The notes: generated by a model from the sequence alone, not told the origin. A stretch of DNA of 64,000 nt from an uncultured Gemmatimonadales bacterium (GCA_963821525.1 CAWGED010000012.1:32001-96000), one strand, 5' to 3'; shown: positions 4,179-63,910, counted from the stretch's first letter. Numbers and translations: made by a program.

Positions 4179-4284
4179 GAGTAAGAAGTAAGGAGTAGGG
4201 AGTAGGCGAGTAGGGAGTGGTGGAGTGGAGACGGACTCGGTGCGCAGTACTCGGACTACCACTCGGTACTCGGTACTAGGTACT
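4179..4284. repeat. Heptamer tracts: left (GAGTAGG)n, right (GTACTCG/GTACTAG)n
   Basis: Read directly: gagtaag aagtaag gagtagg gagtagg ... actcggtactcggtactaggtact. Confidence 0.85.
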
Positions 4285-4301
4285 TCAACTCTAGAAATCC
4301 A

Positions 4302-4478
4302 ATGACAGTCGCAGCTACGACCGCCGAATGGCTCTGCACCCGATGCGGGAGCACCAATCGCCTGCTGGTTGCCTCCGGGACCCGGGAAGCGGAAGATCGT
4401 TGCACTCACTGCCACGTGAAGCACCTGGTCCAGCCTGGTGACCGGCCGGTACGGTGGGAAGCCAGATCGATCGATTGA
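4302..4478 (+). CDS. Small Zn-ribbon-like protein, 58 aa (not in ORF track)
   Basis: Manual translation [63 protein letters not shown] overlap with ruvB start. Confidence 0.8.
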
Positions 4479-5500
4479 TGAGCCGCCTGGAGATCACCAC
4501 CCCCGACGTCCTCCCCGAGGAGACCGGCGCCGAAGCGGCGCTCCGGCCCTCTCGGCTCGACGAGTTTGTGGGGCAGGTGCAGGTGAAGGCCTCGCTCCAG
4601 ATCGCGATCGATGCCGCGAAGGCCCGGGGTGAGCCGCTCGATCACACCCTGTTCTTCGGTCCGCCTGGACTCGGCAAGACGACGCTGGCAACACTGCTCG
4701 CCCGGGAGATGGGGGTTCAACTCAGGACCACGTCGGGGCCGGTTCTCGAAAAGCCCGGCGATCTGGTGAGCCTGCTGACGACCCTGCAGCCGGGCGACGT
4801 GCTCTTCATCGACGAGATCCATCGCCTCCGTCCGGTTCTCGAGGAGTTCCTCTACCCCGCGATGGAGGACTATCGGGTCGAGGTGCGCATCGCCGACGGA
4901 CCCCACGCCCAAACCATCCCGATGGCGATCGAGCGGTTTACCCTCATCGGCGCCACAACCCGGTTCGGTCTGCTGACTCCACCGATGCGAGCCCGCTTCG
5001 GAATGGTGGAGCGGCTGAATTTCTATCCCGCCGATGAGCTCAAGACCATCGTCGTGAGATCGGCGCAGATCCTGAATGTTCCGATCGAGTCGGAGGGAGC
5101 CGACGAGCTGGCGAAGCGAAGCCGCGGCACACCGCGCGTGGCCAACCGCCTGTTGCGCCGGGTGCGGGACTATGCCCAGGTGCGGGCTAACGGAATCATC
5201 ACCGCACAGGTTGCCCGCGATGCACTGAGCCGGCTCAACGTGGATGAGTTCGGTCTCGACGACATGGACGCGCGCATTCTCAAGACCATCATCGAGAAGT
5301 TCAGCGGCGGGCCGGTAGGACTCAACACCGTTGCCGTGGCGGTGGGCGAAGACAGCGGGACGCTCGAGGAAGTGTACGAGCCGTACCTGATCCAACAGGG
5401 GTTCCTCGAACGCACCGCGCGGGGCCGAGTCGCGACGGCGCATGCCTACCGGCGGTTCGGGATGAAGATGCCTGCTTCCCAGCCATCGATGTTTGAGTAG
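4478..5500 (+). CDS. ruvB: Holliday junction branch migration helicase RuvB
   Basis: [45 protein letters not shown]. Confidence 0.98.
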
Positions 5501-5592
5501 GGCCAGGGAGTAGGGAATAGGGTGTAGGGAGTAGGGTAACGACCTATCTTCCTTCCCCACCCCCTACACCCTACTCCCTACTCCCCACTCCC
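5496..5592. repeat. Inverted heptamer tracts (GGGAGTA)n ... (TACTCCC)n
   Basis: agggagtagggaatagggtgtagggagtaggg versus ccctacaccctactccctactccccactccc. Confidence 0.9.
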
Positions 5593-5607
5593 GATTCGCT
5601 GTCCGCC

Positions 5608-6627
5608 GTGCCCTACCACACCACCGACTTCGACTACTCCCTCCCACCCGAGCTCATCGCGCAGTATCCCATCGCCGAGCGCGGAACCAGCCGACTGCTC
5701 GTAGTCAGGCGGCATGATGCCGAACTGGAAGACCGAAGCTTCGGCGATCTGACCCAGCTCATCCCACCCGGAGACCTGCTGGTCCTGAATAGCACTCGGG
5801 TCCGGCACGCGCGGTTCCTGGGGACTCGGCCGAGCGGTGCGCCCGCGGAGGTGTTGTTACTGCATCCCGGTACCGAGGGTGCCTGGATCGCGATCGGCCG
5901 GCCCGGTTCGGCGATGAAGCCCGGCAAGCGGATCCGTCTCGCGCCGGACATCGAGGTGGAAACCGTCGCGGAGTTGGAGGAAGGCCAGCGCGAGGTCCGG
6001 TTCATCGGGGCTACCGCGGAAGAAGCAATTCGACGCCTGGGCCGGCTGCCGCTCCCTCCTTACATCGAGCGGGACCCCGATTCGAATGACGAGATCAGAT
6101 ATCAGACGGTCTACGCGGAGCAGGAAGGGAGCGTGGCCGCGCCGACCGCGGGCCTGCACTTCACCGCCGAGATCCTCAAGGCAGCTCGAGCAGCGGGACG
6201 TGCGCATCGCGCGACTGGATCTCGAAGTCGGCCCCGGGACCTTCAAGCCGGTTGAAGTCGAGGATCTCACTCGGCACCACATGCATCCGGAGCGGTTTGA
6301 CATCCCCGAAGCAACCGCGACAGCGATCGCGGAGGTTCGCAAACGGAAGGGCAGCGTCTGGGCGGTCGGTACCACGGTGGTGAGAGCGCTCGAAAGTGCT
6401 GCTGCGGAAGGGGGCCTGGTGCGATCGGGCAGCGCGGAAACCCGGCTCATGATCACACCGGGTTTTCAATTCAGGGTAGTCGATCACCTGCTGACCAACT
6501 TCCACCTCCCCCGTTCAACTCTGTTGATGCTGGTCTCCGCCTTCGCGGGCTATGACCTCACCATGGCCGCGTATCGGCACGGCGTTGCGGAGAGATACCG
6601 GTTCTACTCGTACGGGGATGCGATGCT

Positions 6628-6637
<10 letters not shown>
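5608..6637 (+). CDS. queA: SAM:tRNA ribosyltransferase-isomerase QueA (frameshift near 6183)
   Basis: DFDYSLPPELIAQYP, AAPTAGLHF, TNFHLP, YRFYSYGDAM. Confidence 0.96.
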
Positions 6638-8265
<1,628 letters not shown>

Positions 8266-11368: not shown

Positions 11369-12715
11369 CCGACGCATCCACTGATCTTTCACCACCCGGC
11401 CTGGCGCCGAGACGCGCTGCGCTCCGAATCCTGGAGCGGGCAGGACGTGGTCTGCCGCTGGATGCGGCGCTGGAGTTGAGCATGAAGGGGCTGGAAGGGG
11501 CCGATCGCCGGCTGGCCCACGAGCTCGCGGCTGGAGTCCTGCGGCGTCAGACCGAGCTCGATTCCCGGCTGGAACGGCACGTCCCCCGGGGACTCGGATC
11601 GGTTCCGCCCTTGATTCGCGGCGTTCTCCGCCTCGGCGTGTACCAGCTGGATCAGCTGGACCGGGTGCCACCTCACGCCGCCGTCAGCACATCAGTGGAC
11701 CTGGCGCGCGAAGTGGCTGGAGCGAAGGCCGCGGGGTTCGTGAATGCGGTGCTGCGGAGAGCGGGAGAGGCGGGAAACCCTGGGCCTACCGGGAAAACCC
11801 GTCGCCCGTCCGACCCGTCCGCCTCGTCCGTCCTGAACGACCTGTCCACCCGTTTCTCTCATCCAGAATGGCTAGTCGGCCGATGGATCGAGCGATTCGG
11901 CGCGGAAGACACCGAGGCGCTCCTCGCATGGAACAACCAGCGCCCCGTTCTTGTCGTGCAGCCCGGCCGAGAGAGCGAAGCTCAGATCGGTAACCGGTTC
12001 GAGGAGAATCGAATCGAATTCAAGTCTGCGCCCTTCGGTGCCGGGTTGATTGTGGCGGGACGTTCTCCCGCCAATCTGCCGGGATACGCCGAAGGCGCCT
12101 TCATCGTTCAGGATCCGGCCCAGGCTCTGGTAGTACGGTTCGCGGACTTCCCCGCCGACGCCACGGTGTACGACGCCTGTGCCGCCCCGGGCGGCAAGAC
12201 GATCGCCTTGGGCCGTAGCGTCCGTTCGGTGATCGCGGGCGAAGCCCGGCCATCGCGGCTGCCCGCGACTGGCCGAGAATCTCGCTCGTGCCGGATCAGG
12301 GCCTGCATTCATCGTGGCGGCGGACGCGAGTCGCCCTCCGCTCAAGCGATGCGCCGCGGTTCTGCTGGACGCTCCCTGCCTGGGCACCGGTACTTTCGCG
12401 CGGCATCCGGACGCGCGGTGGAAGGTGAATCCTGAAGCACTCGATCGCCTGAGGCGCCGCCAGGCAGATCTGCTTACCGCGTGTGCCGCGCTGATACCGC
12501 CGGGCGGTTTGCTGGTCTACTCTACCTGCTCCCTCGAGCCGGAGGAGAACGCCGAGCAGATCGATCGCTTCCTGGCGCGCTCGCCGGAATTCCGTCGTGA
12601 GCCGCCGGCCGGCATGACTTCCGATCTGCTCTCCGACAAGGGAGACCTCGAGTTGTTCCCTCAGCGGCACGGCATGGACGGGGCCTTTGCAGCCCGCCTC
12701 AGGAGAATCGCCTAA
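11365..12715 (+). CDS. rsmB: 16S rRNA m5C methyltransferase RsmB/Sun (frameshift near 12260)
   Basis: NusB-like N-terminus (FVNAVLR), SHPEW, QD, DACAAPGGKT, DAPC.GTG, YSTCS. Confidence 0.93.
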
Positions 12716-17279: not shown

Positions 17280-17965
17280 AGTCGCGGCTCGGCAAGGCGT
17301 CGCTTCGCGACGACACGTAATTTTAGTCGCGGCCTTCGCGACGCACGCAACCGGGGACTCGTTGCATTTCTCTGGTCAGGGTCGCGGGAATCTGATCAGC
17401 GAATAGCGCAACTTGGCGTTATTCTCGCCCGTGTTTCCCCAACTCTACGTCCACATAGTCTGGACCACCCGCGACCGCGCCCCGCTCATCGACGCCGCCT
17501 TGGCCCGGTTCCTCAGTCGGATCCTACGCCCCCTGGCCCGCAAGGAGCGGTGCTACATCCTCGAAATTGGGATGGTCCAGACCCACGTGCACCTGCTAAT
17601 CCGGGTGCATCCCACAACGAGTATTGCCCAGCTGCTCAAGCGGCTGAAAGGAGCCAGCTCGGCGCTGGCCACGCAGGAAGGTTATGGGGCGGCGGGTCGT
17701 CTCTACTGGGCAAAGGGGTACAGCGTTCACAGCGTGAGCACCCGTATTCTGGAACGAGTGCGACACTACCTGAGAGGGCAGCCGCAGCACCATCCGGCGG
17801 AGGCAATTGCCGGCTGGGGTGGCGACGAGGCGGCGGAGTACGACGTGGCAAGCGAGGCCGCACGGGCGAGGGAGGCTAACATCGACCCGCCGCCGCATCT
17901 TTGAAGGAGATTCACATCGCACCCGTGGCAGAGCCACGGTCTGCCGAGCCGCGACTTCAGTCGCG
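17271..17965. mobile_element. IS200/IS605-type (or REP-associated) element bounded by 24-bp inverted repeats, each containing a hairpin
   Basis: 17271-17294 cgcgactgaagtcgcggctcggca is the reverse complement of 17942-17965; internal stem cgcgac/gtcgcg. Confidence 0.75.
17431..17904 (+). CDS. tnpA: IS200/IS605 family Y1 HUH transposase
   Basis: YVHIVWTTRDR, HVH (HUH), LKGASS, WAKGY..SVS, catalytic YLRGQ. Confidence 0.92.
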   Translation: MFPQLYVHIVWTTRDRAPLIDAALARFLSRILRPLARKERCYILEIGMVQTHVHLLIRVHPTTSIAQLLKRLKGASSALATQEGYGAAGRLYWAKGYSVHSVSTRILERVRHYLRGQPQHHPAEAIAGWGGDEAAEYDVASEAARAREANIDPPPHL

Positions 17966-42690: not shown

Positions 42691-42691
42691 T

Positions 42692-42852: not shown

Positions 42853-42860
42853 TTCCAACC

Positions 42861-47366: not shown

Positions 47367-47367
47367 A

Positions 47368-47421
47368 AGGACTGAGGACTGAGGAGGGGATCGCACTCCC
47401 TACCCCTCAGTCCTCAGTCCT
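47368..47421. repeat. Inverted heptamer tracts (AGGACTG)n ... (CAGTCCT)n; 17-bp inverted repeat
   Basis: 47368-47384 is the reverse complement of 47405-47421. Confidence 0.88.
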
Positions 47422-47451
47422 TTCTCCTCACTACTGCTGCTACTTTTCAGG

Positions 47452-48111
47452 ATGGACCGCGCCATCCTCTTCGATTTCAATGGGGTCATCGTCGATGACG
47501 AACCCCAGCATTGCGACGCGCTGATCGCGACGCTCGCTGAGTACGGTCTCCCGCTCAGCCGCGACGACTACTATCGCGATTACCTCGGCTTCGACGACAG
47601 GGAGTGTTTCCGGTTCGCCTTCGAGGGGAACCGGCTTCGGGCCGACGACGGTGTGCTCGATCACGCGATCGAGCGCAAAGCAACCCTGTATGAGAAGGCC
47701 ATTCGCCAATCCATGACGCTCGTGCCAGGCTCAACCGACTTCATTCGGGACGCGTCCCGCAGGGGCTATCGTCTCGCCGTTGTCTCCGGCGCGTTGCGCC
47801 GGGAGATAGAGCTGGTGCTGTCGCTCGCCGGATTGCGAGACTTGTTCGGGGTGGTGATTGCCTCGGAAGACGTGAATGCCTGCAAGCCCGATCCCCAAGG
47901 CTACGAGCGGGCGCGCGTGACGCTGGCACTGCCCTCCGAACGATGCGTGATCATCGAGGACTCCCTTCCCGGCTTGGGCGCCGCCCGCCGAGCAGGCATT
48001 CGCTGTGCAATGGTCGCGACTTCCCATTCGGCGACTGATCTGCGGGCTGCCGACCTGGTATGGCAGGACCTCCGGGGCCACACCGCCGACGAACTGCCCT
48101 GGTCCGCATGA
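47452..48111 (+). CDS. HAD family phosphatase
   Basis: FDFNGVI, VSG, KPDP, IEDS. Confidence 0.9.
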   Translation: MDRAILFDFNGVIVDDEPQHCDALIATLAEYGLPLSRDDYYRDYLGFDDRECFRFAFEGNRLRADDGVLDHAIERKATLYEKAIRQSMTLVPGSTDFIRDASRRGYRLAVVSGALRREIELVLSLAGLRDLFGVVIASEDVNACKPDPQGYERARVTLALPSERCVIIEDSLPGLGAARRAGIRCAMVATSHSATDLRAADLVWQDLRGHTADELPWSA

Positions 48112-49097
48112 GCGCTCCCCGGGTTTCCCTCGATCGCGCGCGGCTCGACCGCCTCCGCCAGGGGGCGGTTGTGGTTCGGACCGAGCCTGCGGCGTTCAAT
48201 GTGACCGGCATGGGGGCACTCCAGTGTCTCCAGGGATTGCTCACCAACGACCTCGTCAAACCGGGTGATCACAGCCTCGTGTATGGGGCGCTGCTTACTC
48301 CGAAGGGGATGATCGTGGTGGATTTCTGGGTGCTGCGGCGGCCCCAGGGGTTCCTGCTGCTGGCGGAGCGCGATGGCCGCGAGGCCGCCCTCGATCTCTT
48401 CCAGCGCCAGTTACCGCCCCGACTGGCCCGGATGGAAGATCTCACCGGGCAAGTGAGCGCGCTCTGGTTGTTCGGCGAGAATGTGCTGGGTACCCTGCGC
48501 TTCTCCCGAATCGGACCCGTGCCCGAAGCCGAAGGCCGACTCGCCGAAGGTGCCCCCGACTCCGAACTCTTGATTGCGAGGCCCCACGCCAAGGCACCGT
48601 TTCAAGCGCTGGTGACGGGAGCCAATGACGAAATCGAGAAGGCAATCGCGACGCTCACCAGGGCCGGGGCAACCGTGGGAGACGAGCGGGAGACGGCGGC
48701 GGCCCGGATCCTCGCGGGCTGGCCCGCACTGGGTGCCGAGATAGGAGAAAAGACGCTGCCCCAGGAAGTCCGCTATGACGAACTGGATGGGGTCTCGTAT
48801 ACCAAGGGTTGCTATACCGGGCAGGAGACAGTGGCCCGGTTGCACTTCCGCGGCCACACTAATCGTGGGCTGCGCGGGCTTATCTGGCAGGAGGGAGACC
48901 TGCCTCCGGGGAGTTCGGTTACCACCGATGATGGCAAGGAAGTCGGCACCGTGCGCTCCACCCTCTTCCTTCCCGACCGATCGGTGGCGCTCGCGCTGCT
49001 TCGTCGCGAGGTGGAACCAGGGTCCTTTGTGACCGCGTCGGGCCGGCCGGCAATCGTCGTCGCCCTGCCCTTCGACGTAGACCTGCTGCTCGCGTGA
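48108..49097 (+). CDS. ygfZ: YgfZ/GcvT-like folate-binding protein
   Basis: LQGLLTND, KGCYTGQE. Confidence 0.92.
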   Translation: MSAPRVSLDRARLDRLRQGAVVVRTEPAAFNVTGMGALQCLQGLLTNDLVKPGDHSLVYGALLTPKGMIVVDFWVLRRPQGFLLLAERDGREAALDLFQRQLPPRLARMEDLTGQVSALWLFGENVLGTLRFSRIGPVPEAEGRLAEGAPDSELLIARPHAKAPFQALVTGANDEIEKAIATLTRAGATVGDERETAAARILAGWPALGAEIGEKTLPQEVRYDELDGVSYTKGCYTGQETVARLHFRGHTNRGLRGLIWQEGDLPPGSSVTTDDGKEVGTVRSTLFLPDRSVALALLRREVEPGSFVTASGRPAIVVALPFDVDLLLA

Positions 49098-49124
49098 TCC
49101 AGATCACTATTCCATGAAACACAA

Positions 49125-49144
49125 GGGCCGCCTTGTGGCGGCCC
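49125..49144. terminator. Hairpin between convergent genes
   Basis: gggccgcc-ttgt-ggcggccc; T-rich tail on minus strand. Confidence 0.6.
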
Positions 49145-49177
49145 CCGAGCGGCGATTCAGCAATTGCGACCAGGCGA

Positions 49178-49342
49178 TTACATCGAGTGCGCGGTGTCGC
49201 GGGGCATGCTGTCCGGCTTCATGGCGCCTGAGTCGGCCGGTGCCGGCGCACCCATAGTCGAGTCGGCCGGCGGAGTCTGGGCCTTCTTCGGACCGCACGC
49301 CGTCAGAGCAAGCAGGGCGGCCAGCGTGAGAACCTTCTTCAT
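49178..49342 (-). CDS. Small 54-aa lipoprotein (not in ORF track)
   Basis: MKKVLTLAALLALTAC GPKKAQTPPADSTMGAPAPADSGAMKPDSMPRDTAHSM; SD aggag; followed by hairpin. Confidence 0.82.
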   Translation of the reverse strand: MKKVLTLAALLALTACGPKKAQTPPADSTMGAPAPADSGAMKPDSMPRDTAHSM

Positions 49343-49512
49343 TGGGACTCCTCTAAGGTTACGAGTGATGCACAGCTAGGCTCGAGCCCCGTCATGGGGC
49401 GACAAACCGCGCGCAAGTTTATTAGCGAGTGCTCCATTGTCAAGCACCGGGGACCGGCTTGGTCATGCGTTACATTTTCCTCGGGTCGCCAGTCCCTACT
49501 AATCTTATACTC

Positions 49513-50982
49513 ATGTCCACCCTTCCCCAGACCCTCGGCGAACTCAAACGTAGCCGCTGGGCCGAGCCACCGCTGCGCGGCCGGTCGGTGCGCGACGAAA
49601 TCCGCGCCAACGTCCTGCGCATGATACAATCCGGCGAAGACCTCTTCCCCGGCATCGTGGGCTACGAAGACACCATCGAGCCCCAGCTGATCAACGCCCT
49701 GCTCGCCCGACATCCCATCATTCTCCTCGGCCTCCGAGGCCAGGCCAAGAGCAGGATTCTGCGACAACTCACCCGCTTTCTGGACGAGGTGATTCCCATC
49801 CTCGAGGGGAGCGAGGTGAACGATGACCCCTTCGCGCCGATCTCCAAGTTTGCCCGGGAGCGAATCGCGCAGTGCGGCGACGCTACGCCGATTGACTGGC
49901 TGCACCGGGACAACCGCTACGTCGAGAAGCTGGCCACCCCGGACGTGACCATCGCGGACATCATCGGGGACGTGGATCCGATCAAGGCCGCCCGCGGCGG
50001 GCACCTCCTGGCCGACGAGCTCAGCATGCACTTCGGTCTGCTGCCCCGTGCGAATCGTGGCATCTTCGCCATCAACGAGCTGCCGGATTTGAGCGGCAAG
50101 ATCCAGGTGGGCCTGTTCAACATCATGCAGGAAGGCGACGTCCAGATCAAAGGCTATCCGGTCCGCCTGCCGCTGGACGTAATGCTCGCCTTTACGGCGA
50201 ACCCCGAGGACTACACCGCCCGCGGCAAGATCATCACACCGCTCAAGGACCGGATCGGATCCGAGATCACGACCCACTATCCCCGCTCGGTGGAACTGGG
50301 GATGGCGATCACCGCGCAGGAAGCATGGTCCGAGCGCGGAGGCTTGCCGCTGGATCTTCCCGACTTCGTGCTCGAGCTGATCGAACGTGTAGCGTTCGAA
50401 GGCCGCGAGGACAAGCGGGTGGACAAGCGCTCCGGAGTGAGCCAGCGGCTGCCTATCAGCCTACTGGAGCACGTGATCTCCAATGCGGAGCGCCGCTCAC
50501 TCACTCACAGCGAGCCGAGGGTGACCCCAAGGGTGAGCGACGTGTACGCCTCGGTGCCGTCCATTACCGGCAAGCTGGAGCTGGAATACGAGGGAGAGCT
50601 GCAGGGCGGCGAGTCCATCGCGAAGGAACTCATCCGTCGCGCCGCCGGTCACACGCTGGAGGAACGGTTGGGAGGGCGCAACCTTGATCGCGTGGTGGCC
50701 TGGTTCGACCAGGGTGGCGCGCTCAAGGTGAGCGGGGACGAGCGGAGCGAGGTGTATCTCAAGGGACTGCGGGTGGTGCCGGATCTGTGCGACGCCGCGA
50801 CCGATGCTGGGCTGGCCGAGGGCCGCGACTCAGCGCGACTCGTTGCCGCGTGCGAACTGATCCTGGAAGGACTCGCGGCGGAGAAGCGGATCAGCCGCAA
50901 TGAGGAGGTGGGATATACCCGCGCGAAGCCGGAGAGACGGGAGCCGGGTGGGGGATATCAGAAGGGGCTGGGGTTGGGGTAA
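49513..50982 (+). CDS. Mg-chelatase-I/MoxR-like AAA+ ATPase
   Basis: GLRGQAKS, ANRGIFAINELPDL, ANPEDYT.RG, LKDR. Confidence 0.88.
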   Translation: MSTLPQTLGELKRSRWAEPPLRGRSVRDEIRANVLRMIQSGEDLFPGIVGYEDTIEPQLINALLARHPIILLGLRGQAKSRILRQLTRFLDEVIPILEGSEVNDDPFAPISKFARERIAQCGDATPIDWLHRDNRYVEKLATPDVTIADIIGDVDPIKAARGGHLLADELSMHFGLLPRANRGIFAINELPDLSGKIQVGLFNIMQEGDVQIKGYPVRLPLDVMLAFTANPEDYTARGKIITPLKDRIGSEITTHYPRSVELGMAITAQEAWSERGGLPLDLPDFVLELIERVAFEGREDKRVDKRSGVSQRLPISLLEHVISNAERRSLTHSEPRVTPRVSDVYASVPSITGKLELEYEGELQGGESIAKELIRRAAGHTLEERLGGRNLDRVVAWFDQGGALKVSGDERSEVYLKGLRVVPDLCDAATDAGLAEGRDSARLVAACELILEGLAAEKRISRNEEVGYTRAKPERREPGGGYQKGLGLG

Positions 50983-50985
50983 ATG

Positions 50986-51072
50986 GCAGATTGAAGATTT
51001 CAGATTGACCGATTGCCGATTGAACGGCGGCTCGCAAAAATCGGCAGTCAGCAATCTTCAATCTGCAATCTT
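50986..51072. repeat. Inverted heptamer tracts (AGATTGM)n ... (KCAATCT)n
   Basis: gcagattgaagatttcagattg ... gcaatcttcaatctgcaatct. Confidence 0.85.
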
Positions 51073-51086
51073 CCAACTCTGAATTC

Positions 51087-51710
51087 CTACCAACCTCTCG
51101 CCCTCGCCAGTCCCACCACTACCTCCGCGGCGCCCTCGAATCCCAGCAGCCCCGTGTTGAGAATCGCGTGATAGTGAGCAGGATCGTCCCAGTCCCGTCC
51201 GTAGTACTCCTTGTGATATCGGGACCGGCGAGCGTCAATCTCGTCCATGTATTTCTCGGCCGCACGAGGATCGAGCTTCTCGGCCTGGGCGGCGTACTTC
51301 GCGCGGAATTCGCGCGGCGCCACCAGCTTCACGTGCAGAGCGTCGGTCAGCTGGCCGATTACTGCCGGCGCTGCACGGCCCACCAGGACAGCCCGACCCT
51401 CCGCCGCCACTTCCTTCACCACCGCCTCGGTGATCCGAACCAGGCTGGGCTCGTCTCTCGGCAGCGCGGCAGCTCCCAGCTCGGGGACCGCCAGCTCCTG
51501 CGATGAGACCGCAAGCGTGCGAGCCAGCCGTTCGATGAAGCTGGGGGCCCGCTCCTCCTGACGCGCCACCTCCACCGGTGAGAGCTTGGCGCGCTCCGCC
51601 ACCCGGTCGATGATCTCGTTGTCCACCACGGACCAGCCGAGCCGCGCGGCGACCAATCGCGCCACCTCGGAACCGCCTGCCCCGTACTGTCGGGAGATCG
51701 TGATGACCAT
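51087..51710 (-). CDS. Cytidylate kinase-like family protein
   Basis: ITISRQYGAGG, VLVGR, R..Y..YYG.DW. Confidence 0.9.
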   Translation of the reverse strand: MVITISRQYGAGGSEVARLVAARLGWSVVDNEIIDRVAERAKLSPVEVARQEERAPSFIERLARTLAVSSQELAVPELGAAALPRDEPSLVRITEAVVKEVAAEGRAVLVGRAAPAVIGQLTDALHVKLVAPREFRAKYAAQAEKLDPRAAEKYMDEIDARRSRYHKEYYGRDWDDPAHYHAILNTGLLGFEGAAEVVVGLARARGW

Positions 51711-51745
51711 GGGTGAGAAGCTACGGTTAGTGGTGGATGTGGACA

Positions 51746-51830
51746 ACGTGAGATGTGAGAGGTGAGAAGTGAGAGGGAACTGCACTGAGGATGCCTTCAC
51801 CTCTCACGTCTCACCTCTCACCTCTCACGT
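51746..51830. repeat. Inverted heptamer tracts (ANGTGAG)n ... (CTCACST)n
   Basis: acgtgag atgtgag aggtgag aagtgag ... ttcacct ctcacgt ctcacct ctcacct ctcacgt. Confidence 0.92.
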
Positions 51831-53021
51831 TTTTTCCCTAAGCCCCAGCCCCACAGTCGCGATCGCACACATCGTCCCGCCCAAGGCGAGCGAAGTACGC
51901 ACGCCGAGGTGCTCGGATATCCAGCCCGCCTGAAGCGAGCCGAATGGCGCCATCCCCAGGACCATCAGCGAGTAGAAGCCCATGACTCGGCCGCGGAGAT
52001 CGTCGGGCGCCTGGGTCTGGAGCAGCGAGTTGGTCATCACGTTGTTGAGAATCATGCTGCATCCGGCCACGCCGAGCAGGAAGGCGGCGATCCAATACTG
52101 GGATACCAGCGCGACCAGGGCGAGCGCAGTGCTGAACATGAGGCCGCCGAATCGAATCAGAGTCGAGCCCTTGGCCCGCGAGCCCAGTGCTGCCATCGCG
52201 AGCGCTCCGATGCTGGCCCCCAGGCCCACCGCGGACATCAGTCCGCCGTAGCCCGTGGCGCCGACGCCGAGGACATTCTGGGCGTAGACCGGGAGCATCG
52301 GCAGAAAGGAAAAACCGAAGACGCTGAAAGCGGCGGTAAGGAGCAACAACGAACGGGGGACTTTCTCCCCCATCGCGTAGCGTACTCCCTCCTGAAAGGT
52401 CCCCTGCCCCTCGACCTGCCGTCCCTCTCCCCTGATCACCCCACGCATCGAGAGAAAAGCGATGATCACCGCGAGAAAGCTCGTGGCATTGGCAAAGAAG
52501 CAGGCGGCAAGACCCACCGCGGCAATCAGAGCCGCCGCGATCACCGGCCCGATGATCCGGGAGAGGTTGAAGACCGATGAGTTGAGCGCGATCGCGTTGA
52601 GCAGGTCCTCCCTCCCCACCATCTCGATCACGAACGACTGGCGGAAGGGCACTTCGAAGGCGGAAAGCGTGCCCAGAAAGACGGCTAGCGCCATGACCCA
52701 GGCGACGGTCACCCGTCCGGTCGCAGTCAGAATCCCGAGCGTGAGCGCCTCGCACATCATGAGGCTCTGAAACAGGATGATTCCCCGGTGCTTGTTGACC
52801 CGGTCCGCCAGCACTCCGCCGTAGAGCGTGAAGGCCAGGATTGGCAACGAGCCGAGGGTGCTGACCAGCCCGACTTTGAACGGGGAATTGGTCAGCTGCA
52901 GCACCAGCCATCCCTGGGCCACGGTCTGCATCCAGGTCCCGCAGAGAGAAATGAACTGGCCAGCGAAGAAGAGACGAAAATTCCGGTGACGGAGTGCGGT
53001 GAAGGGGTTGGGGGTGGGCAC
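51825..53021 (-). CDS. MFS transporter (MFS_3-like)
   Basis: ALRHRNFRLFF.GQ, GTWMQ, NAIALNS, RGRVMG; about 12 TM. Confidence 0.93.
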   Translation of the reverse strand: MPTPNPFTALRHRNFRLFFAGQFISLCGTWMQTVAQGWLVLQLTNSPFKVGLVSTLGSLPILAFTLYGGVLADRVNKHRGIILFQSLMMCEALTLGILTATGRVTVAWVMALAVFLGTLSAFEVPFRQSFVIEMVGREDLLNAIALNSSVFNLSRIIGPVIAAALIAAVGLAACFFANATSFLAVIIAFLSMRGVIRGEGRQVEGQGTFQEGVRYAMGEKVPRSLLLLTAAFSVFGFSFLPMLPVYAQNVLGVGATGYGGLMSAVGLGASIGALAMAALGSRAKGSTLIRFGGLMFSTALALVALVSQYWIAAFLLGVAGCSMILNNVMTNSLLQTQAPDDLRGRVMGFYSLMVLGMAPFGSLQAGWISEHLGVRTSLALGGTMCAIATVGLGLREKT

Positions 53022-53040
53022 GGAGGAAGGGTAATAAGAC

Positions 53041-53160
53041 CGGGAACGGGAACAGGGAGACAGGGGAACGGCGGAACGGGGGAACGGGTTGAACGGGAGG
53101 CCCGAAGGTGGGTATGCATTCAGTAACGGCCTGTTCCCGGTTCCCTGTTCCCCGTTCCCG
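53041..53160. repeat. Inverted (GGGAACR)-type tracts between divergent genes
   Basis: cgggaacgggaacagggagacaggggaacg... versus ctgttcccggttccctgttccccgttcccg. Confidence 0.85.
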
Positions 53161-53169
53161 CTTCTGGCA

Positions 53170-54462
53170 ATGCGCTTCACCACCTACTCCAAGTTCGTTC
53201 CCGGCCTCGCCGAGGCGGTGAATCTCCAGTCGTTGCTGGATGAGCTGGGAGATTTCCTGCTACAGTCGGGCTTTACGGGCGGGGGCGGGGAGTTCTGGGG
53301 AGACGAAGGGGAAGACCGGTCGCTCGAGTCGCTCCGGCAGGCCATTCTGCAGGCGCTGATCGACTCGGGACAGCTCACGCCCGAGATGCTGCAAGGACCT
53401 GCGGGGAGAGCCGGCGAAGAATCCGGCCGGCCAGCGGCAGATCGAGCAGGACCTGGCTCAGTTGCTGGACGAGATCGTCCAGCGGCTCATGGAGGAGGGG
53501 TACCTCAACCTCGAGCAGGCGCCTCAGATGCCGGCCGGGCTATAGCTCACTCTATGGGCCGGGAGGGCAGGCGGCATCGGCGGCGCGGCAGATCCAGTTC
53601 AATCTCACCGAGAAGGGCATCGACTTCCTCGGCTACAAGACCCTCAAGGGCCTCCTCGGCAGCATCGGCAAGTCGAGCTTCGGCGCCCACGAAACTCCGC
53701 ACCTGGCCACCGGCATCGAGGCGGAGGCGGTGAGCAAGCCGTACGAATTCGGCGACACGATGAACCTGGACGTACCCGCGACGCTCGTCACGCGCCATCG
53801 GCCGCGAAGGACTCGAGGTTCCGCATCACCGCTGGAGTACGACGACCTCATGGTGCACCAGGCCGAGTATCGCTCGTCGGCCGCGACGGTGCTCATGCTC
53901 GACTGCTCGCACTCGATGATCCTCTACGGCGAGGACCGCTTCACCCCCGCCAAGAAGGTGGCGCTGGCGCTGACCCACCTGATCCGGACCCAGTATCCCG
54001 GGCGACTCGATTCGGTGTCGTCCTGTTCCACGACACCGCGGAGGAGATTCCGCTCGCGGCACTCGCCACGACGCAGGTCGGGCCCTATCACACCAACACC
54101 GCGGAAGGGCTGCAAGCTGGCGCGCCGGATCCTCACTGGCCAGAAGAAGGACATGAAGCAGATCATCATGATCACCGACGGCAAGCCGTCGGCACTCACG
54201 ATGCCGGACGGGCGGGTCTACATGAATTCGATGGGGCTCGACCCGATGATCCTGCAGGCGACCTATCGCGAGGTGGCGCAACTGCCGGCGGGCGGGCATC
54301 ATGATCAACACCTTCATGCTGGCGCGGGACCGGCACCTGGTCGAGTTCGTGAAGAAGATGTCGCAGATCTGCCGCGGCAAGGCGTACTTCACGACTACCA
54401 TGACGCTGGGCCAGTTCATCCTGATGGACTTCATGAAGCGGAAGACCCGGAGAGTGTCGTGA
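53170..54462 (+). CDS. VWA domain protein (multiple frameshifts)
   Basis: MIDAS DCSHSM, ITDGKP, YEFGD..NLD; probable partner of the AAA ATPase at 49513. Confidence 0.85.
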
Positions 54463-54531
54463 ACGGGAGACGGGAGACGTAAGACGTGAGAACGTCTAAC
54501 GTCTCACCCTCTCACGTCTCACGTCTCACCC
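54463..54531. repeat. Inverted heptamer tracts (AGACGKG)n ... (CTCACGT)n
   Basis: acgggagacgggagacgtaagacgtgag ... gtctcaccctctcacgtctcacgtctcacc. Confidence 0.9.
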
Positions 54532-54538
54532 TCCCCTC

Positions 54539-60296: not shown

Positions 60297-60385
60297 AGTA
60301 CCTAGTACCTAGTACCGAGTACCTAGAACCGAGTACTGACCGAGCACTAGGTACTAGGTACTCGGTACTCGTTACTCGGTACTGA
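60297..60385. repeat. Inverted heptamer tracts (AGTACCK)n ... (GGTACTM)n
   Basis: agtacctagtacctagtaccgagtacctagaaccgagtact ... taggtactaggtactcggtactcgttactcggtactga. Confidence 0.93.
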
Positions 60386-60405: not shown

Positions 60406-60972
60406 CTACCGCCAGTTCCCCAATTCGTCAAGCGGCTGCACTGCTCGGCGCATGATCATGCAAAGCCAGAGTCCGTAGCCCAGTGAGACGAGCAGGCAGA
60501 TCAGGGCGAGCAGCCGAAGGCCGTTCGCGATCCGGGTGTCATACTGCAATGCACCGAACCGGCCCAGCAGGTAGGCCCAATCGTGCTGGGGGTCGCCGCC
60601 GAAGCCCACCAGGTCCAGGTCGAATGACCGCGCGTCTCCGACGTAGCGCGCGAGGTCGAGCAGGCTCGAGCTCAACCAGGCACCCGCGGCGCTGAGGCCG
60701 AAGTAGTCGTTGTAGTAGTAGAGAAGTGCGCCGGCGCCGATCGGGATCAGGAGCTGGTTGAGGCTTCCACCTGCCACACCCATGAACTCGCCGAAGAAGG
60801 AGAAGACGAGGTGGCCCAGCTCGTGGACCCCGAACGTGATGCCGGCGAAGAGCCCACCCGCGTCAGGATCCCGAAGATGCCGCAGCCCGTCCCAGCCCAG
60901 CAGGGCGAGCACAGCCAATCGCCAGTAGGGAGATCGGCCGTGTGCCCAGGCTTTAGCGTTAGCAAGGAGCAT
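60406..60972 (-). CDS. Membrane protein with HExxH (M50-like)
   Basis: VHELGH in TM context, Y..DAR, HDW..LL. Confidence 0.75.
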   Translation of the reverse strand: MLLANAKAWAHGRSPYWRLAVLALLGWDGLRHLRDPDAGGLFAGITFGVHELGHLVFSFFGEFMGVAGGSLNQLLIPIGAGALLYYYNDYFGLSAAGAWLSSSLLDLARYVGDARSFDLDLVGFGGDPQHDWAYLLGRFGALQYDTRIANGLRLLALICLLVSLGYGLWLCMIMRRAVQPLDELGNWR

Positions 60973-60977
60973 GGAGA

Positions 60978-61038
60978 TCAGTACCTAGTACCGAGTACCG
61001 AGCTGCCGCAATCGCTGACGGCTGACGGCTGATGGCTA
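60978..61038. repeat. Mixed heptamer junction (AGTACCK)3 ... (GCTGAYG)3
   Basis: tcagtacctagtaccgagtaccgag ... gctgacggctgacggctgatggcta. Confidence 0.9.
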
Positions 61039-63691
61039 CCTCCACTACGGTGCTCATCCAGATATCCCCGCGGGATTCGATGGTGACGAGGGACAATGCG
61101 GCGCAAATCGTGCGAGACAGCGCCGACCTGAAGGCTGGATCCTGACGCGGGATCTTCCCCAGGCGTTCCACCCGCCCCGGGCCGCAAGCACATGATAAAC
61201 CGTCAATGGAGTGCTGGATTTCCAAAGTTGGACACCAAGCGATGGACCCATCCGGGAACCAGGTAGTGAGGGCACCCTCGCTAGAACCAGGTCGCCCACG
61301 GAGTGACCTTCCCGTCCGGAAAGAGAAAGCACGCTCAGCCGGACCGAATCGAAGGTGGTGGTGTTCCAGCCGGCGAACGCCAGCTCGGTTGCCCTTCCGG
61401 GCGCTGCGGATAGAGAACATTGGCCATGAGATACCAGTCGGGCACCGTGGAAGATTCGAGGCGCGCTATCGCCCTTAGCTGGACGTTGATGCTGCGGCCG
61501 TCAACCGGTAACCAGGCCCAGCCGTTCGTCGGAGAGAGGTGTCCCGCCCAAAATAGCCGAATCCGCCAGGGTGAACCGGTTCCGTCGCGCGCCGTCTGCG
61601 CAGGTCCATCAGGCGGAGCTGCACCACGCCCGACACCTTCTCACCAAACGACATCGTGACCGAATCCAGCCATCCCCAACCAAGGAGCGTGCCCGACACT
61701 TTGAGGGGCGTCTCGGGTCCACCACCGAACGGCATGACCGACAGAATGCCGCCTCCTGAAGTCTCGGAATCATCCCGTTTGATCACGACACGATTCCCGT
61801 CGGGGGAAAGTCCGAGGACAATTGGAACGGTGGACTGCAAGTAAGCGCCGGCTCTCAGGGAAAGACTCCCCGAAGCGCATCGCGGAGATCGAGGGTCCAT
61901 CCGGTGTACTCGGATGTTCCTTCGTCCAGGACGAGGGCGCCGCCATCCTCGGTGACTTCGAACTGAGTGAACCGGCCAGCGTAGACGGTATCCCAGCGTT
62001 GGGCGAAGCGGCCCGTTTTCGGGGTAAACGGGATGCGCACAATCAACTGACGCATATTGATCCCCGGTGGAGACTGCACCTGCCAAAGCGCATCGGCGCT
62101 GACCCGCGTTTCTTCACCAACGTCGTGTACTACCACGCGGTCACTGATTTGTCCTTGCCGGTCGATGCTGCGGAACTCGCTCCAATTGCCGTTCCATAAG
62201 GATACCAGCACCCAAGGCGAACCGGTCGCTCACTCCAGACACAAAGACGGCCTGCGACGCTCCGGCAACCTTGATGCTGTCATGCCACGTCCCATCCAGG
62301 CCCGCAACACCGATCCAGTGGACGCTGTCGGACTTGGGCACCGGAGTGAGCAGGACTGAATCGCCCCTCCCCAAGAAGGCTGCGTCCCCGGAGGTCACCA
62401 GGCGCGGGATACCGCCCAGGGCGGAGACCAGGTACCAGCCGTACCCTGCTGCCATTGTGCCCTGGAACAGAAGGTTTCGGCGGTCGGGACTCCAGATAAT
62501 TCCGTACAGTGCCGTGGCGCCCTCAACGATTCGCCGGGTCGCTGATCCCCCGACGTCCTTGAGTTCGATCGCATAATGACAACTGCTATCACACTGGCTG
62601 ATGGCGTAGGCGAGCTGCTTCCCGTCGGGAGAGATGGCGGGATAGCTCACCCGTCCCGTCGAAGTAAGCTGTACCCGGTCGCGGAGCGTGACCGAGGTCT
62701 GCGGCGTACGACGAGTCAAGAGGAGGAGTGCCACTACGACGAGGGTCGCAACCAGTCCCCCCACGAGCATGATCCGGGAAAGCGCCTTCGGTCTCGTTTC
62801 CTGGGTAACCTCGACCGGCCGGGTCTGGGTCGGCGTCATGCCACCGCTCGGTGTCGCCAGCGGCTCCAGTTGGGACAACAACTCTTCGGCAGTCTGCCAG
62901 CGGTCCGCGGGCCGCTTCTCGAGGCAGCGCATGATGATGGCACCCAGGATCGGCGGACATGCCGCCCGATGTGCGGTCACTGGTTCAGGTACCCGGGTCA
63001 CATGCGCGCCGAGAACCTCGGCTGGGCTTCCCCCGCTGAAAGGGGGATTCCCGGTGAGCAGCTCGTAGCCCATCGCCCCCACCGCGTAGATGTCCACCCG
63101 CTGATCGAGATGGGGATCGGCCGCGGCCTGCTCTGGTGCCATGTAAGCCGGAGTGCCCAGCGCGACGCCTGCCGTGGTGAGTTGGTTGCGACCTGTCGCC
63201 TCACTCACGGCCTTCGCCACCCCGAAGTCCGTCACCAGGGCGTGGCGCCCGCTCAGCATCACGTTGTCCGGCTTGATATCGCGATGCACCACGCCCATCG
63301 CGTGGGCGGCGGCCAGAGCGTCCACCACCTCACAGAGGATCTTCACCGCATCATGGATCGGCAGCTCCCCGACCTTGGCAAGCCGCTCCCGGAGCGACTC
63401 GCCGGCCACGTAGGGCATGACGTAGTAGTAGAAACCCTGGGTCTCGCCCGAGTCGAGTAGCGGGAGGATGTGAGGATGCTGGAGCTGGGCGGCGACTTCG
63501 ATTTCCCGGAAGAACCGGTCGCTGCCGAGGGTGGCCGCGATCTCCGGGCGCAAGACCTTCACCGCCACTTTGCGGTGGTGCTTGAGATCCTCGGCGAGAT
63601 AGACGGTAGCCATCCCCCCCTGACCGATTTCCCGGTCGATGCGGTAACGGTCGGCGAGTGCCGCCTTCAGGAGGTCGGCTGTACTGGGCAT
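61036..63691 (-). CDS. Hanks-type Ser/Thr kinase with TM and TolB/PD40-like propeller (several frameshifts in 3' half; end approximate)
   Basis: GQGGMATV, VAVK, HRDIKPDN, DFG, GTPAYMAPE; ISPDGK and WSPD repeats. Confidence 0.92.
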
Positions 63692-63740
63692 GGCTCCCGT
63701 CCGGTCAGATGGTCGGGCAGCCTCAATGCTATCACTGTTT

Positions 63741-63910
63741 GCCGTCAGCCGTCAGCCGTCAGCTCGCGTTAGCGGTTAGCGGTTAGCGGTTAGCGGTTAG
63801 CCAACTGCCATAAGCCATAAGCTGTAGGCCGAAAGCCATTAGCATGAGGAGGATGACGCAAGGTCCCTACCTGCTCCCCACCACCCACTACCCACTACCC
63901 ACTAGCCACT
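63741..63910. repeat. Compound heptamer tract (GCCGTCA)3,(AGCGGTT)4,(GCCATAA)-like x5 ... (CCACTAC)n
   Basis: Read directly at 63741-63843 and 63878-63910. Confidence 0.92.

Follow-up and report, generated by a model that had tools for sequence, protein, structure and literature searches.

Introduction

In Xanthomonas, the heptamer GGGAATC is repeated in intergenic regions, usually with four copies of the unit. The arrays form convergent pairs (70 and 75 cases) and occupy conserved sites, where their length varies (Rehm et al. 2015, PMC4692102). Repeat 15 in the supplement of that paper lies six bases past bccP and overlaps the annotated start of XCC0516, which is the four-helix-bundle protein solved as 2GSC. 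Rehm et al. described one unit and read it as a G-quadruplex, and the paper does not contain the term "four helix". In contrast, the repeats reported here comprise about 40 related units, most of them unable to form a G-quadruplex, and are tied to a protein family. Assignment to the G-quadruplex class of Rehm et al. was rejected, as the commonest units (AAGATTG, AGCCGTC, ACCGAGT, ATGGTCG, and AAGTGAG) lack a G3 run.

Beggiatoaceae contain oriented intergenic arrays of the heptamer TAACTGA with 2–6 copies, which are patchily distributed across phyla (MacGregor 2015, PMC4679880). A repeat-binding protein was proposed there, as a speculation, to be the mobile element, with S1, Csp, and CsrA as candidates; the accessible part of that paper differs from the present case in naming no four-helix, S23, or intervening-sequence protein and in containing almost no inverted pairs. 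Cyanobacterial STRR and the heptamer excess are unexplained period-7 tandem arrays (Mazel 1990; Mrazek 2007, as cited in PMC4692102), and that account of them gives neither a partner protein nor a polarity rule. The tracts described here, dispersed intergenic tandem 7-mers, belong descriptively to the STRR-like class of heptameric short tandem repeats.

REP/REPIN-RAYT systems consist of many short extragenic inverted pairs and a small number of cognate genes that have these repeats on either side, each with a sequence class of its own. The arms reported here are likewise many, extragenic, inverted, and foldable. They differ in that they are tandem 7–8-mers around unique centres, that their units switch in place, and that the cognate gene does not encode an HUH transposase.

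The PF05635/TIGR02436 family has been found in 23S rRNA insertions that are excised by RNase III (10.1101/2024.02.27.582315). The PF05635 genes studied here are instead located between protein-coding genes, have neither a reverse transcriptase (RT) nor a template or variable repeat, and score far below the Avd cut-off. We analysed a 64,000-nucleotide stretch of an uncultured Gemmatimonadales bacterium (the window) together with its genome (G000) and related genomes.

Heptamer arms in the window

The first-pass annotation, made from the sequence alone, listed tracts at 17 gene boundaries. All 17 were present, although the one at 21722 is a single weak inward arm with two copies of ACGTGAG at the ACPS gene stop (21723–21737, −). 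The description of the spacers as head-to-head, with a unit facing its reverse complement, held at 12 of the 17 sites; 4179, 36748, 60978, and 63741 are polar with mismatched arms, and 21722 has one arm.

Among the matched sites, GAGTAGG arms start within the ruvB stop codon (5496–5536, +) and lie ahead of queA (5554–5592, −); the same unit is used at the stop of a sigma-70 gene (42687–42718, +; 42803–42852, −) around a hairpin centre conserved among relatives. AGTACC(T/G) arms start at the queA stop (6628–6701, +) and precede tgt (6725–6758, −), where the units differ in G004, G001, and G011, and form a further pair at 60297–60336 (+) and 60346–60383 (−). AGCC(A/T/G)TA, 20 nt outside a minus-strand start codon (25119–25150, +), is matched by GTAAGCC past the stop of a sigma-54 regulator gene (25189–25212, −). 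Arms of 8-mers of the GGCGG(G/T)AT type (34554–34587, +) are matched at the 5' end of an S13 peptidase gene (34646–34668, −). The longest arm in the window, GCCGT(A/C/T)A in 11.6 copies (36128–36208, +), faces a short arm with two copies of GCCATAA (36226–36240, −). The remaining pairs use GACTGAG (47368–47385, +; 47405–47421, −), GATT(G/T)(A/C)N between convergent genes (50986–51022, +; GATT family, 51052–51073, −), GTGAGA(A/G/T) (51746–51776, +; GTGAGA family, 51797–51828, −), GGGAAC(A/G) with some interspersed 8-base units (53041–53097, +; GGGAAC family, 53130–53164, −), and GGGAGAC grading into GTGAGA/GTAAGAC (54463–54491, +), which meets GTGAGAC (54492–54533, −) with nearly no centre. The centre of the 53041 site is partly conserved in relatives despite different units.

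The mismatched sites, with minus-strand arms given in minus-strand reading, combine outward GAGTAGG 3' of ruvA (4179–4226, +) with inward-facing AGTACCG of another family (4261–4284, −), a broken outward arm of AGTTCCG/AGTACCT units (36748–36807, +) with TCAGCCG/TTAGCTG (36811–36864, −), AGTACCG (60978–61002, +) with GTCAGCC (61014–61037, −), and a layered outward arm running from GCCGTCA through GTTAGCG to GCCATAA (63741–63822, +) with TAGTGGG (63877–63910, −). A head-to-head pair of 8–9-mers, absent from the first-pass list, lies between two domains of a NusB/RsmB-type ORF (11756–11853) and is retained in G003 and G004.

Contigs from two public runs span the 63741 site with near-identical flanks, between which they have another allele, of 126 bases, and tracts were found in the orthologous spacers of independently assembled relatives. 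The tracts are therefore not an assembly artefact.

No candidate enzyme had been noticed in the window; an IS200/IS605-type Y1 transposase gene is present (17413–17904), but it is flanked by palindromes of its own and lacks heptamer arms. All four Y1 matches have palindromes of their own, and none lies between heptamer arms, although one is near a gene-less arm pair (shell); membership of the REPIN-RAYT class was rejected.

Period, location, and vocabulary of the tracts

Genome-wide, TRF (score of at least 40) detected 682 arrays with period 7, compared with 11, 150, and 114 with periods 6, 8, and 9, respectively. Exact runs with at least 14 matches numbered 4, 195, 63, and 10 for periods 6, 7, 8, and 9. 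Period 7 exceeds periods 6 and 8, and the earlier argument that plain slippage predicts neither the polarity nor the period is upheld. According to a crude purpose-made gene caller, 156 of 1031 period-7/8 tracts lie mostly within called genes, which cover 80% of the genome. The median tract length was 4.4 copies, and the peak at 4–5 copies is partly a product of the detection threshold.

About ten unrelated units and one 8-mer had been reported in the window. Across the genome there are about 40 outward units, with 8-mers as a real second class (198 tracts), and the units are related: 28 single-substitution links connect the 33 outward 7-mers, and none connects them to reverse complements. Variation within each unit is restricted to set positions.

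Polarity and pairing of the arms

In clusters with several tracts, the first and the last one, read outward from the adjacent gene, had one orientation in 445 cases and the other in 21 (families with at least four members). The fixed orientation in the first-pass annotation was confirmed, with rare exceptions where none had been claimed. Outward-then-inward order, scored with a unit vocabulary learnt from the same genome, was found in 193 of 195 two-arm spacers: 74/75 between ++ genes, 48/49 between −− genes, 56/56 between convergent genes, and 15/15 between divergent genes. Single tracts, which were left out when the vocabulary was learnt, kept the rule in 206 of 273 cases.

Genome-wide, 163 of 247 close pairs matched within one substitution (shuffle mean, 17.7), and about one third were mismatched. 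Unit variants occur in shared proportions in the arms of one locus (0.645 vs 0.530, p 0.001, n = 114).

These arms could act in transcripts as hairpins (terminators, stabilisers, or RNase III sites); the four-helix oligomer described below would then be a TRAP/Hfq-like ring bound to the arm of the unit (U) immediately past stop codons, and the tracts would have grown by ordinary slippage and been retained by selection. Consistent with this, the arms abut stop codons (median distance 2–3 nt) and stand off start codons (20–37 nt), tracts occupy 36% of the spacers between convergent genes, 19% of those between tandem genes, and 11% of those between divergent genes, and all ten matched shells tested fold (z −3.9 to −11.8). 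The Avd pentamer uses all five of its protomers to bind an RNA stem-loop (10.1101/2023.10.23.563531). However, folding was absent from mismatched pairs (z −2.4 and +1.0), which still keep the polarity, units are replaced at the same gene end among genomes with 85–97% flank identity and even between near-identical strains, and a regulator would not need matched arms around its own gene in every phylum. We consider action at the RNA level rather improbable.

Four-helix-bundle genes enclosed by heptamer arms

The search for Avd-like four-helix-bundle genes suggested in the first-pass annotation returned 13 PF05635 matches in the genome, at 12 distinct sites, and all 13 are, by eye, enclosed by polar arms. 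The Pfam cut-off was passed by 11 of the 13, and the TIGR02436 cut-off by all five cassette proteins tested. The cassettes are about 600 nt long, have housekeeping genes as neighbours, and are ordered as (U)n, a leader of about 90 nt, the gene, and (reverse complement of U)n. The nearest complete cassette is located about 2 kb past the window end (G000:C12:97966-98539).

The cassette protein was predicted to form four helices (pLDDT 96.7), and its fold matched 2GSC (Z 20.9, rmsd 0.9 over 113 residues), 2RLD (Z 16.3), and Avd (Z 14.8 and 14.3). Structure comparison revealed no recognisable catalytic fold, and a weak search for longer forms returned one, without an extra domain. Q38, R41, E52, and E75 are invariant, and S45, N49, and S72 nearly so. 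Xcc0516, a solved relative, is a pentamer, and by analogy the cassette protein is probably a nucleic-acid-binding pentamer.

The telomerase-like addition suggested in the first-pass annotation would require an RNA template for U repeats at DNA 3' ends, such as a cassette transcript with (reverse complement of U)n at its end, copied by a reverse-transcribing polymerase while the Avd-like protein holds the RNA, as happens in diversity-generating retroelements. The arm geometry fits 3'-end extension on both strands, and the protein fold is Avd-like; a TANNNT box lies 4–7 nt ahead of the start in 13 of 45 cassettes (controls, 113 of 2681), and a median of 10 nt separates the stop codon from the 3' arm. 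Against this, RT (PF00078) was not found in this genome (81% complete), and a search of 31 genomes found it in 5 and not in the other 26, among them the most complete cassette-rich relatives, G001 and G011 (98% and 100% complete; 12–13 cassettes). The NF033474 Avd cut-off of 80 was reached in none of the 31 genomes (best, 36.5 bits), variant order in shells was not enriched for 3'-arm order (0/8 families), the inner and outer halves of tracts were equally pure (843 vs 843 mismatches), and no RNA family in Rfam matched the window. Telomerase-like templating received no direct support and is very improbable. A diversity-generating retroelement was also rejected, since no RT lies next to the cassette gene and the Avd cut-off was missed.

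Cassettes and units in other genomes

In named phyla, a tract adjoins the four-helix gene at 61 of 77 loci, and tracts beside such genes have period 7 in 89 of 97 cases. Arms are inverted at 48 of the 77 loci and direct at 6; for inverted arms, the comparison counts were 27 of 1522 for cross-locus pairs and 1 of 77 for far flanks. Of 36 distinct loci on viral contigs, 23 carry inverted arms and 8 direct ones. A few cassettes in relatives have no clear arms of period 7–9. One protein clade (SH-aLRT 97, quick tree) has 8–9-mer arms at 13 of 14 sites vs 3 of 33 elsewhere, a clade chosen after the labels were seen and whose kin are not independent. For 7-mers, protein distance correlates with unit distance at 30 separate sites (rho 0.21, p 0.0045), kin again not being independent. 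The link between clade and unit could arise from co-inheritance of the gene and its arms alone.

Of 978 genome tracts, 571 are identical to a cassette unit of the same genus and 869 are within one substitution, compared with 68 and 392 when units of other genera are used; the reverse-complement control gave 65. Cassettes of this genome, which is 81% complete, account for 217 exact and 361 near matches. As a test of prediction, cassette-flanking units were counted in two further genomes: the unit beside the one cassette found in G034 has 54 occurrences there and none in four other genomes, and the corresponding counts for the unit of G033 are 12 and 0. G034 tracts are mostly unpaired, with a partner within 800 nt for 4 of 16, one of which is the cassette, and the genome also has other heptamer families.

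The tracts may instead be host-made, by slippage of a polymerase with a 7-base footprint and hairpin-templated repair, with the four-helix genes, as the GIY-YIG-type palindromes, using existing shells as safe landing sites. The footprint idea is cited in PMC4692102. Cassette number is a poor predictor of tract density (rho 0.33, p 0.16, 20 genomes): 8 of 15 cassette-bearing genomes have no period-7 array in 40 kb, and genomes without a cassette have five arrays in 412 kb. A second palindrome family (GIY-YIG-type) also occupies shell centres, with 14 of 19 copies near an arm, and is present in 5 of 10 emptied sites. Host slippage, however, leaves the fixed polarity, the limited and related vocabulary, and the clade-tracking period without account. 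Cassettes keep their arms where shells are scarce, even where 40-kb samples contain none, and none of the GIY-YIG, Y1, or GxxExxY genes lies between matched heptamer arms. A purely host-made origin is accordingly quite improbable.

Replacement of units and probable movement of cassettes

Orthologous spacers in relatives also contain tracts, in some cases with a switched unit. Among 35 two-arm orthologous comparisons, both arms had switched in 15, and 9 of these 15 had a new matched pair; at some sites a homologous centre is retained between two changed arms. Ten sites without the gene in G000 are filled in relatives, and at least one arm is kept at nine of them. One site contains different paralogues in two co-binned contigs.

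Shell centres are unique in 119 of 133 cases, the sole family, of 14, being a separate palindrome. They do not derive from cassette interiors, with which they share only 12–14-mers or leftover units. Copying as MITEs with terminal inverted repeats was rejected because the centres have no common internal sequence.

Cassettes and non-autonomous shells might alternatively insert whole, preferring old gene-end shells, as REPINs do with RAYT, and the four-helix protein would then be an unusual transposase or a helper of host enzymes. The filled and empty orthologous sites are in line with such insertion, as are two G003 sites that hold near-identical cassettes, with a shell of the same unit at one of them in G004, and layered arms with the older unit outside and the newer unit inside; the seven conserved residues could make an active site. 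No target-site duplication was evident at the single clean empty site, where flank identity is about 71%. Whole insertion is contradicted by the lack of centre families and by homologous centres that persist through a change of both arms. In addition, the exact sequences of identical-consensus arms are not nearer to their own partner (13 wins, 4 ties, and 23 losses). We regard this transposon-like behaviour as unlikely.

Discussion

The polarised tracts noted in the first-pass annotation are real, and its interpretation is partly supported, the option of oriented protein-binding or recombination sites being a good fit. Cassette anatomy, arm polarity, the co-variation of units and their period along the protein tree, the vocabulary common to shells and cassettes, the occurrence of filled and empty orthologous sites, and concerted switching of units were directly observed. 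In the best reading, these belong to an undescribed repeat-plus-protein element, and each of its paralogues likely sets its own unit. More specifically, we assign a probability of roughly 45% to the proposal that the tracts are gene-less versions of the arms around PF05635/TIGR02436 genes, each paralogue likely recognising and rebuilding its own motif in place. Counting against it are the weak link between cassette number and tract density, the limited share of tracts covered by the cassettes of this genome, the mostly unpaired tracts of G034, the mismatched third of close pairs, the few cassettes with unclear arms, and the lack of a recognisable catalytic fold. The shells, at hundreds of gene ends, share form and sequences with the arms of the four-helix genes in this genome and across many phyla; therefore, the protein likely builds and rewrites them. 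Telomerase-like templating and MITE copying are disfavoured because an RT is not needed, the centres are unique, and the variant order is untemplated. Addition at 3' ends without an RNA template is compatible with the arm geometry.

In the proposed mechanism, each paralogue likely recognises a degenerate motif of 7 or 8 bases that is specific to it, and likely causes replication or repair enzymes of the host to make and remake tandem arrays of this motif in place. An oligomer, putatively a pentamer, would bind about 4–5 units of the single-stranded U strand. Slipped synthesis at a nick or break within the extruded hairpin would lengthen the U strand in the 5'-to-3' direction, towards the centre, and this one rule, applied on both strands, would yield head-to-head arms of one unit around any local centre sequence. 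A different paralogue may later overwrite the arms or layer a new unit, and old units would erode outward until stopped by a stop codon or ribosome-binding site. The gene itself may move between sites by recombination or gene conversion via compatible arms. If this is true, the origin of a long-unexplained class of bacterial heptamer repeats would be accounted for.

Heptamer tracts in the window and the host genome

We scanned the host genome (4.33 Mb, 64% GC, 81% complete) for short-period tandem repeats and compared the result with the window (G000:C12:32001–96000, where G000 is assembly GCA_963821525.1 and C12 is contig CAWGED010000012.1). All 17 tracts listed in the first-pass annotation were present in the window sequence. 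The heptamer period described there was also found genome-wide, as 682 arrays with a TRF score of at least 40 had period 7, compared with 11 of period 6 and 150 of period 8; 114 had period 9. In clusters of at least two tracts, the rule that units keep one orientation when read outward from the adjacent gene held by 445 to 21. The order of the tracts, hereafter arms, was kept in 193 of 195 two-arm spacers, across all four gene arrangements, and 206 of 273 single tracts followed the same polarity.

Two earlier claims about the units required revision. Head-to-head arms of a unit and its reverse complement were matched at 12 of the 17 window sites, and the remaining sites were unmatched; in the whole genome, 163 of 247 close pairs matched within one substitution (shuffle mean, 17.7). 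The units had been called unrelated, but 28 single-substitution links connect the 33 outward 7-mers with one another and none connects them with reverse complements; these 7-mers are therefore related. Each unit family varied at fixed positions only, and no age gradient was found along the tracts.

Arms started a median of 2–3 nt from stop codons and 20–37 nt from start codons, and were present in 111 of 305 spacers between convergent genes, 284 of 1488 between tandem genes and 41 of 378 between divergent ones. According to a crude gene caller, 156 of 1031 period-7/8 tracts lay mostly within called genes. Stop codons were rejected as an explanation of the polarity: a stop was present in the outward reading of 22 of 40 units and in the inward reading of 9, and units lacking stops were still polar. 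The repeat feature is real, and stronger than a sequence-only reading could show.

Several individual sites were recorded. A head-to-head 8–9-mer pair (window 11756–11853) lies in the inter-domain linker of a NusB/RsmB-type ORF and is kept in two relatives. Inward 9-mer arms, in frame at gene starts, can encode hydrophobic, signal-peptide-like runs (window 34554–34668; C19:371075; C5:854350; locus L042 of the related genome G003), but a simple test was passed by no more than 3 of 45 arrays, and the property is not general. A CCCTCCG...CGGAGGG hairpin, kept across relatives, occupies the centre of several gene-less arm pairs, or shells (window 42740–42780; C19:413270; C19:425520), and may be a terminator or belong to a third family of small repeats.

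Among flanks of 80 named loci from elsewhere, the best match was to a Gemmatimonadales locus (74% over 300 nt), which hints weakly at the taxon. Near-duplicate contigs are present in the bin, probably from a second strain; a few sites are therefore counted twice in the genome totals. Contig C13 corresponds to window 34212–53279 at about 96% identity (range, 92–97%), and similar pairs are C9/C4, C11/C5, C1/C12 and C17/C5. The C13 tracts differed from those of the window at 34558, 36128, 36748 and 50986 and were identical at 47368 and 51746. The queA gene (window 5608–6637) is split across two frames and ruvC/ruvA (window 2892–4163) form one ORF; together with further frameshifts in the bin, these suggest that the assembly carries indel errors.

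Four-helix-bundle genes between matched arms

A search for Avd-like four-helix-bundle genes, proposed in the first-pass annotation, yielded 13 PF05635 matches at 12 distinct sites in the host genome, the closest 2 kb beyond the window end. When read by eye, all 13 genes were bracketed by an outward arm and an inward arm made of one unit, with the same polarity as the gene-less spacers. We refer to this anatomy as a cassette. Elsewhere, matched arms enclosed a few ordinary genes, as well as a distinct palindrome of the type found around a GIY-YIG gene.

The cassette proteins exceeded the TIGR02436 cut-off and scored far below that of Avd. Four residues (Q38, R41, E52 and E75) were invariant in 44 sequences, and the fold matched Xcc0516 (Z 20.9), BT0352 (16.3) and Avd (14.8). 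A search for PF05635 fusion partners found one longer match, which had no extra domain. A GCGTTT leader motif, found in 8 of 49 cassettes and 46 of 1499 controls, was too weak to be retained. In one RNA run, a 219-nt contig (L221:8240–8458) showed complete identity to the leader and the 5′ half of the cassette gene on C12, with the adjacent genes uncovered; the RNA runs contained 5–12% of words. This contig hints weakly at expression, or at a copy that is shared, and does not show transcription. Avd itself binds an RNA stem-loop with five protomers (10.1101/2023.10.23.563531), and the PF05635/TIGR02436 family is listed within rRNA insertions (10.1101/2024.02.27.582315). We consider it unlikely that the arms and protein form an RNA-level regulator.

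Other candidate enzymes

No reverse transcriptase (RT) was found in the host genome, and 5 of 31 genomes overall carried one. RT was therefore rejected as the repeat writer and is not required for tract making. Telomerase-like addition to DNA ends, one of the options in the first-pass annotation, was disfavoured: no RT was found in the genome, and the variant order in tracts is not that of cassette 3′ arms. Used as ordered templates, 3′ cassette arms gave no excess in 8 of 8 families and 5′ arms a slight excess in 2 of 8. RNA-templated addition of repeats is very unlikely. One PF01896 primase-polymerase match and two Y-family polymerases were found, with no tie to the tracts.

Y1 transposases, short GIY-YIG genes and GxxExxY genes were rejected as cognate enzymes, since they are flanked by their own palindromes and not enclosed by heptamer arms. 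The window encodes an IS200/IS605-family Y1 transposase (17413–17904) above the NF033573 cut-off, with its own flanking palindromes. A second palindromic family (CATCCCGAG...CTCGGGATG) flanks a short GIY-YIG gene (C12:227017–227229); its palindromes nest in shell centres (for example C5:786539, C8:288949 and C18:14832), and 14 of 19 copies lie near an arm. The GxxExxY (PF13366) genes at C5:948723, C4:251119 and C8:120644 are accompanied by 8–9-base repeated or palindromic motifs of the CGCAGAGG and CGCGGA types, and similar pairs, CACAGAGG and TCATCACC, are present in two comparison genomes (G019 and G020). These genes and motifs are possibly a parallel repeat-plus-protein system.

Conservation of the association in other bacteria and viruses

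The PF05635 family was present in 26 of 31 related genomes, with arms at most of the 29 relatives' loci inspected. We sampled 80 loci from other phyla, 77 of them with full flanks. A tract was found on at least one side at 61 of the 77 and on both sides at 36, and 89 of 97 tracts beside these genes had period 7. Matches were inverted at 48 of the 77 loci and direct at 6; the comparison values were 27 of 1522 for cross-locus pairs and 1 of 77 for far flanks. Among 36 distinct loci on viral contigs, 23 had inverted arms, and a crude test detected no RT motif nearby. An Acidobacteriaceae cassette (L118), with long direct period-7 tracts on both sides, is an exception to the inverted rule. In a small cassette clade (L017, L014 and L240; genomes G025 and G029), longer inverted flanks lack clear period-7–9 arrays.

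Protein and repeat co-varied. In a quick-search protein tree (98 rows, 102 columns), 36 of 38 arms of one clade (26 rows, more than one family) had period 8–9, compared with 11 of 119 outside it. Counted by site, the figures were 13 of 14 and 3 of 33 (Fisher 5e-8, a value that overstates the case because the clade was picked after the labels were seen and kin are not independent). Protein distance correlated with unit distance at 30 distinct 7-mer sites (rho 0.21, p 0.0045). Of 978 oriented host-genome tracts, 571 equalled and 869 were within one substitution of 45 units flanking same-genus cassettes; the corresponding numbers were 68 and 392 for 50 units from other genera, and 217 and 361 for the genome's own 15 cassette units. 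The reverse-complement control gave 65.

Where a single cassette was found, in a genome with a Fibrobacter-labelled locus (G034), its unit occurred 54 times there and 0 times in four other genomes; that of a Sphingobacterium-labelled cassette (G033) occurred 12 times in its own genome and 0 times in the others. A script placed partner arms downstream at 6 of the 12 G033 loci (reading by eye, at 5) and upstream at 0. Pairing is not universal, because only 4 of 16 G034 tracts had a partner within 800 nt.

Five genomes without a PF05635 match held 5 period-7 arrays in 412 kb, and 15 with matches held 61 in 640 kb, although 8 of the 15 had none in 40 kb and the two array-richest samples were orthologues of the window itself. 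Array density correlated weakly with cassette number (rho 0.33, p 0.16; 20 genomes), which speaks against a simple dose effect. That the host makes the tracts and four-helix genes merely target them seems quite unlikely to us; in every other reading considered, arms and protein form one system, as is very probably the case. Spread of shells on a large scale is characteristic of this genus.

Turnover of cassettes and units at orthologous sites

We compared orthologous spacers in relatives, as the first-pass annotation had suggested, and found that unit identity and cassette presence both vary among genomes. Both flanks placed 43 of 84 cassette matches from relatives in the host genome: 30 at a gene-bearing site (one frameshifted) and 13, at 10 sites, at a gene-less one. 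Nine of these 10 sites retained at least one arm, two of them as clean shells of an unrelated unit and five around the GIY-YIG-type palindrome; the other site was a bare stop/start overlap. In the relative G003, a near-identical cassette occupied two sites 7 kb apart, one of which held a shell of the same unit in another relative, G004. Two co-binned contigs carried different paralogues at one site. Gene order broke exactly at a shell between L282:1260–1530 (G004) and L055 (G003), with the downstream gene common and the upstream gene different, which suggests that arms act as rearrangement points.

In 52 orthologous shell comparisons, the detector called two arms in 35 and a single arm in 15 and made no call in 2, with arms visible by eye in most of those lacking a call. 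Among the 35, both units were kept in 12, one was switched in 8 and both in 15; 9 of these 15 concerted switches yielded a new matched pair, and polarity was kept in 34 of 35. Some orthologous sites had three units in three genomes and some switched period, while elsewhere the centre stayed homologous and a new unit arose inside the old one. At 63741, contigs of two runs carried 126 other bases in place of 213, with flank differences of 2/273 and 10/466. Cassette-skipping joints in run contigs had sides shorter than 30 bases and were left uncounted.

Shell centres were unique in 119 of 133 cases. Internal deletion of cassettes was rejected as their origin: 24 of 166 centres matched cassette interiors (7–13 when shuffled), through 12–14-mers or leftover units. 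Unit-wise transposition of the element is, in our judgement, rather unlikely to explain these sites. Arms of one locus shared variant composition beyond the family level (0.645 vs. 0.530). That one arm is an exact mirror copy of the other was rejected, as identical-consensus pairs showed no excess, with a small family-level excess (14.5 vs. 13.2, p 0.005).

Discussion

The reading we favour, with a probability of about 0.45, is that a paralogue-specific oligomer promotes slipped synthesis of the units. The data show the cassette anatomy, the polarity, the co-variation, the presence or absence of cassettes and the concerted switching; the steps that follow are inferred. The oligomer would bind its own degenerate motif on the single-stranded U strand (U, unit), and slipped synthesis would run on both strands in the direction of the centre. 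Later paralogues would overwrite earlier units, erosion would halt at stop codons, and genes would move via recombination between compatible arms.

This union of repeat and protein differs from DGR, REP-RAYT, MITE and telomerase-like systems, whose defining tests it fails; REP-RAYT is the nearest in layout. Repeats and protein are each known apart; the mechanism joining them here is a proposed one. In PMC4692102, GGGAATC pairs in convergent orientation are put forward as possible G-quadruplexes, with polymerase slippage cited to account for the excess of heptamers; the supplement of that paper places Xcc0516 beside a GGGAATC tract. On the oriented TAACTGA arrays of PMC4679880, the author guesses at a mobile repeat-binding protein, the PF05635 family being unnamed in that discussion; PMC10053308 relates PF05635 to Avd. 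Searches of open full text, which takes in few subscription journals, found no paper that joins heptamer repeats to a PF05635/TIGR02436 protein.

More tentatively, PF05635/TIGR02436 proteins may be the engine of a pan-bacterial selfish element without transposase or RT, in which each paralogue would write a 7- or 8-base repeat of its own with fixed polarity, set the period and employ the repeats as landing sites for the gene that encodes it. Such an element may account for the excess of heptamers described in Xanthomonas, cyanobacteria, Beggiatoaceae and Bacteroidota, and Avd of DGRs may be a domesticated relative.

Even with the wrong chemistry, the link between repeat and protein is a strong one. 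It is directly testable: each four-helix protein has a predicted ligand written next to its own gene, protein clades provide a natural 7-versus-8 specificity switch, the 2GSC structure is solved, and culturable one-cassette hosts exist. It joins two long-open questions: the dominance of heptamers among long tandem repeats of bacteria, and the role of the very widespread four-helix-bundle (23S IVS/S23-like) proteins. Should unit and period be set by the protein with no nucleic-acid template, this would be a new way of writing genome repeats. If true, it would also generate rearrangement hot spots at gene ends and offer a clue to where Avd came from.
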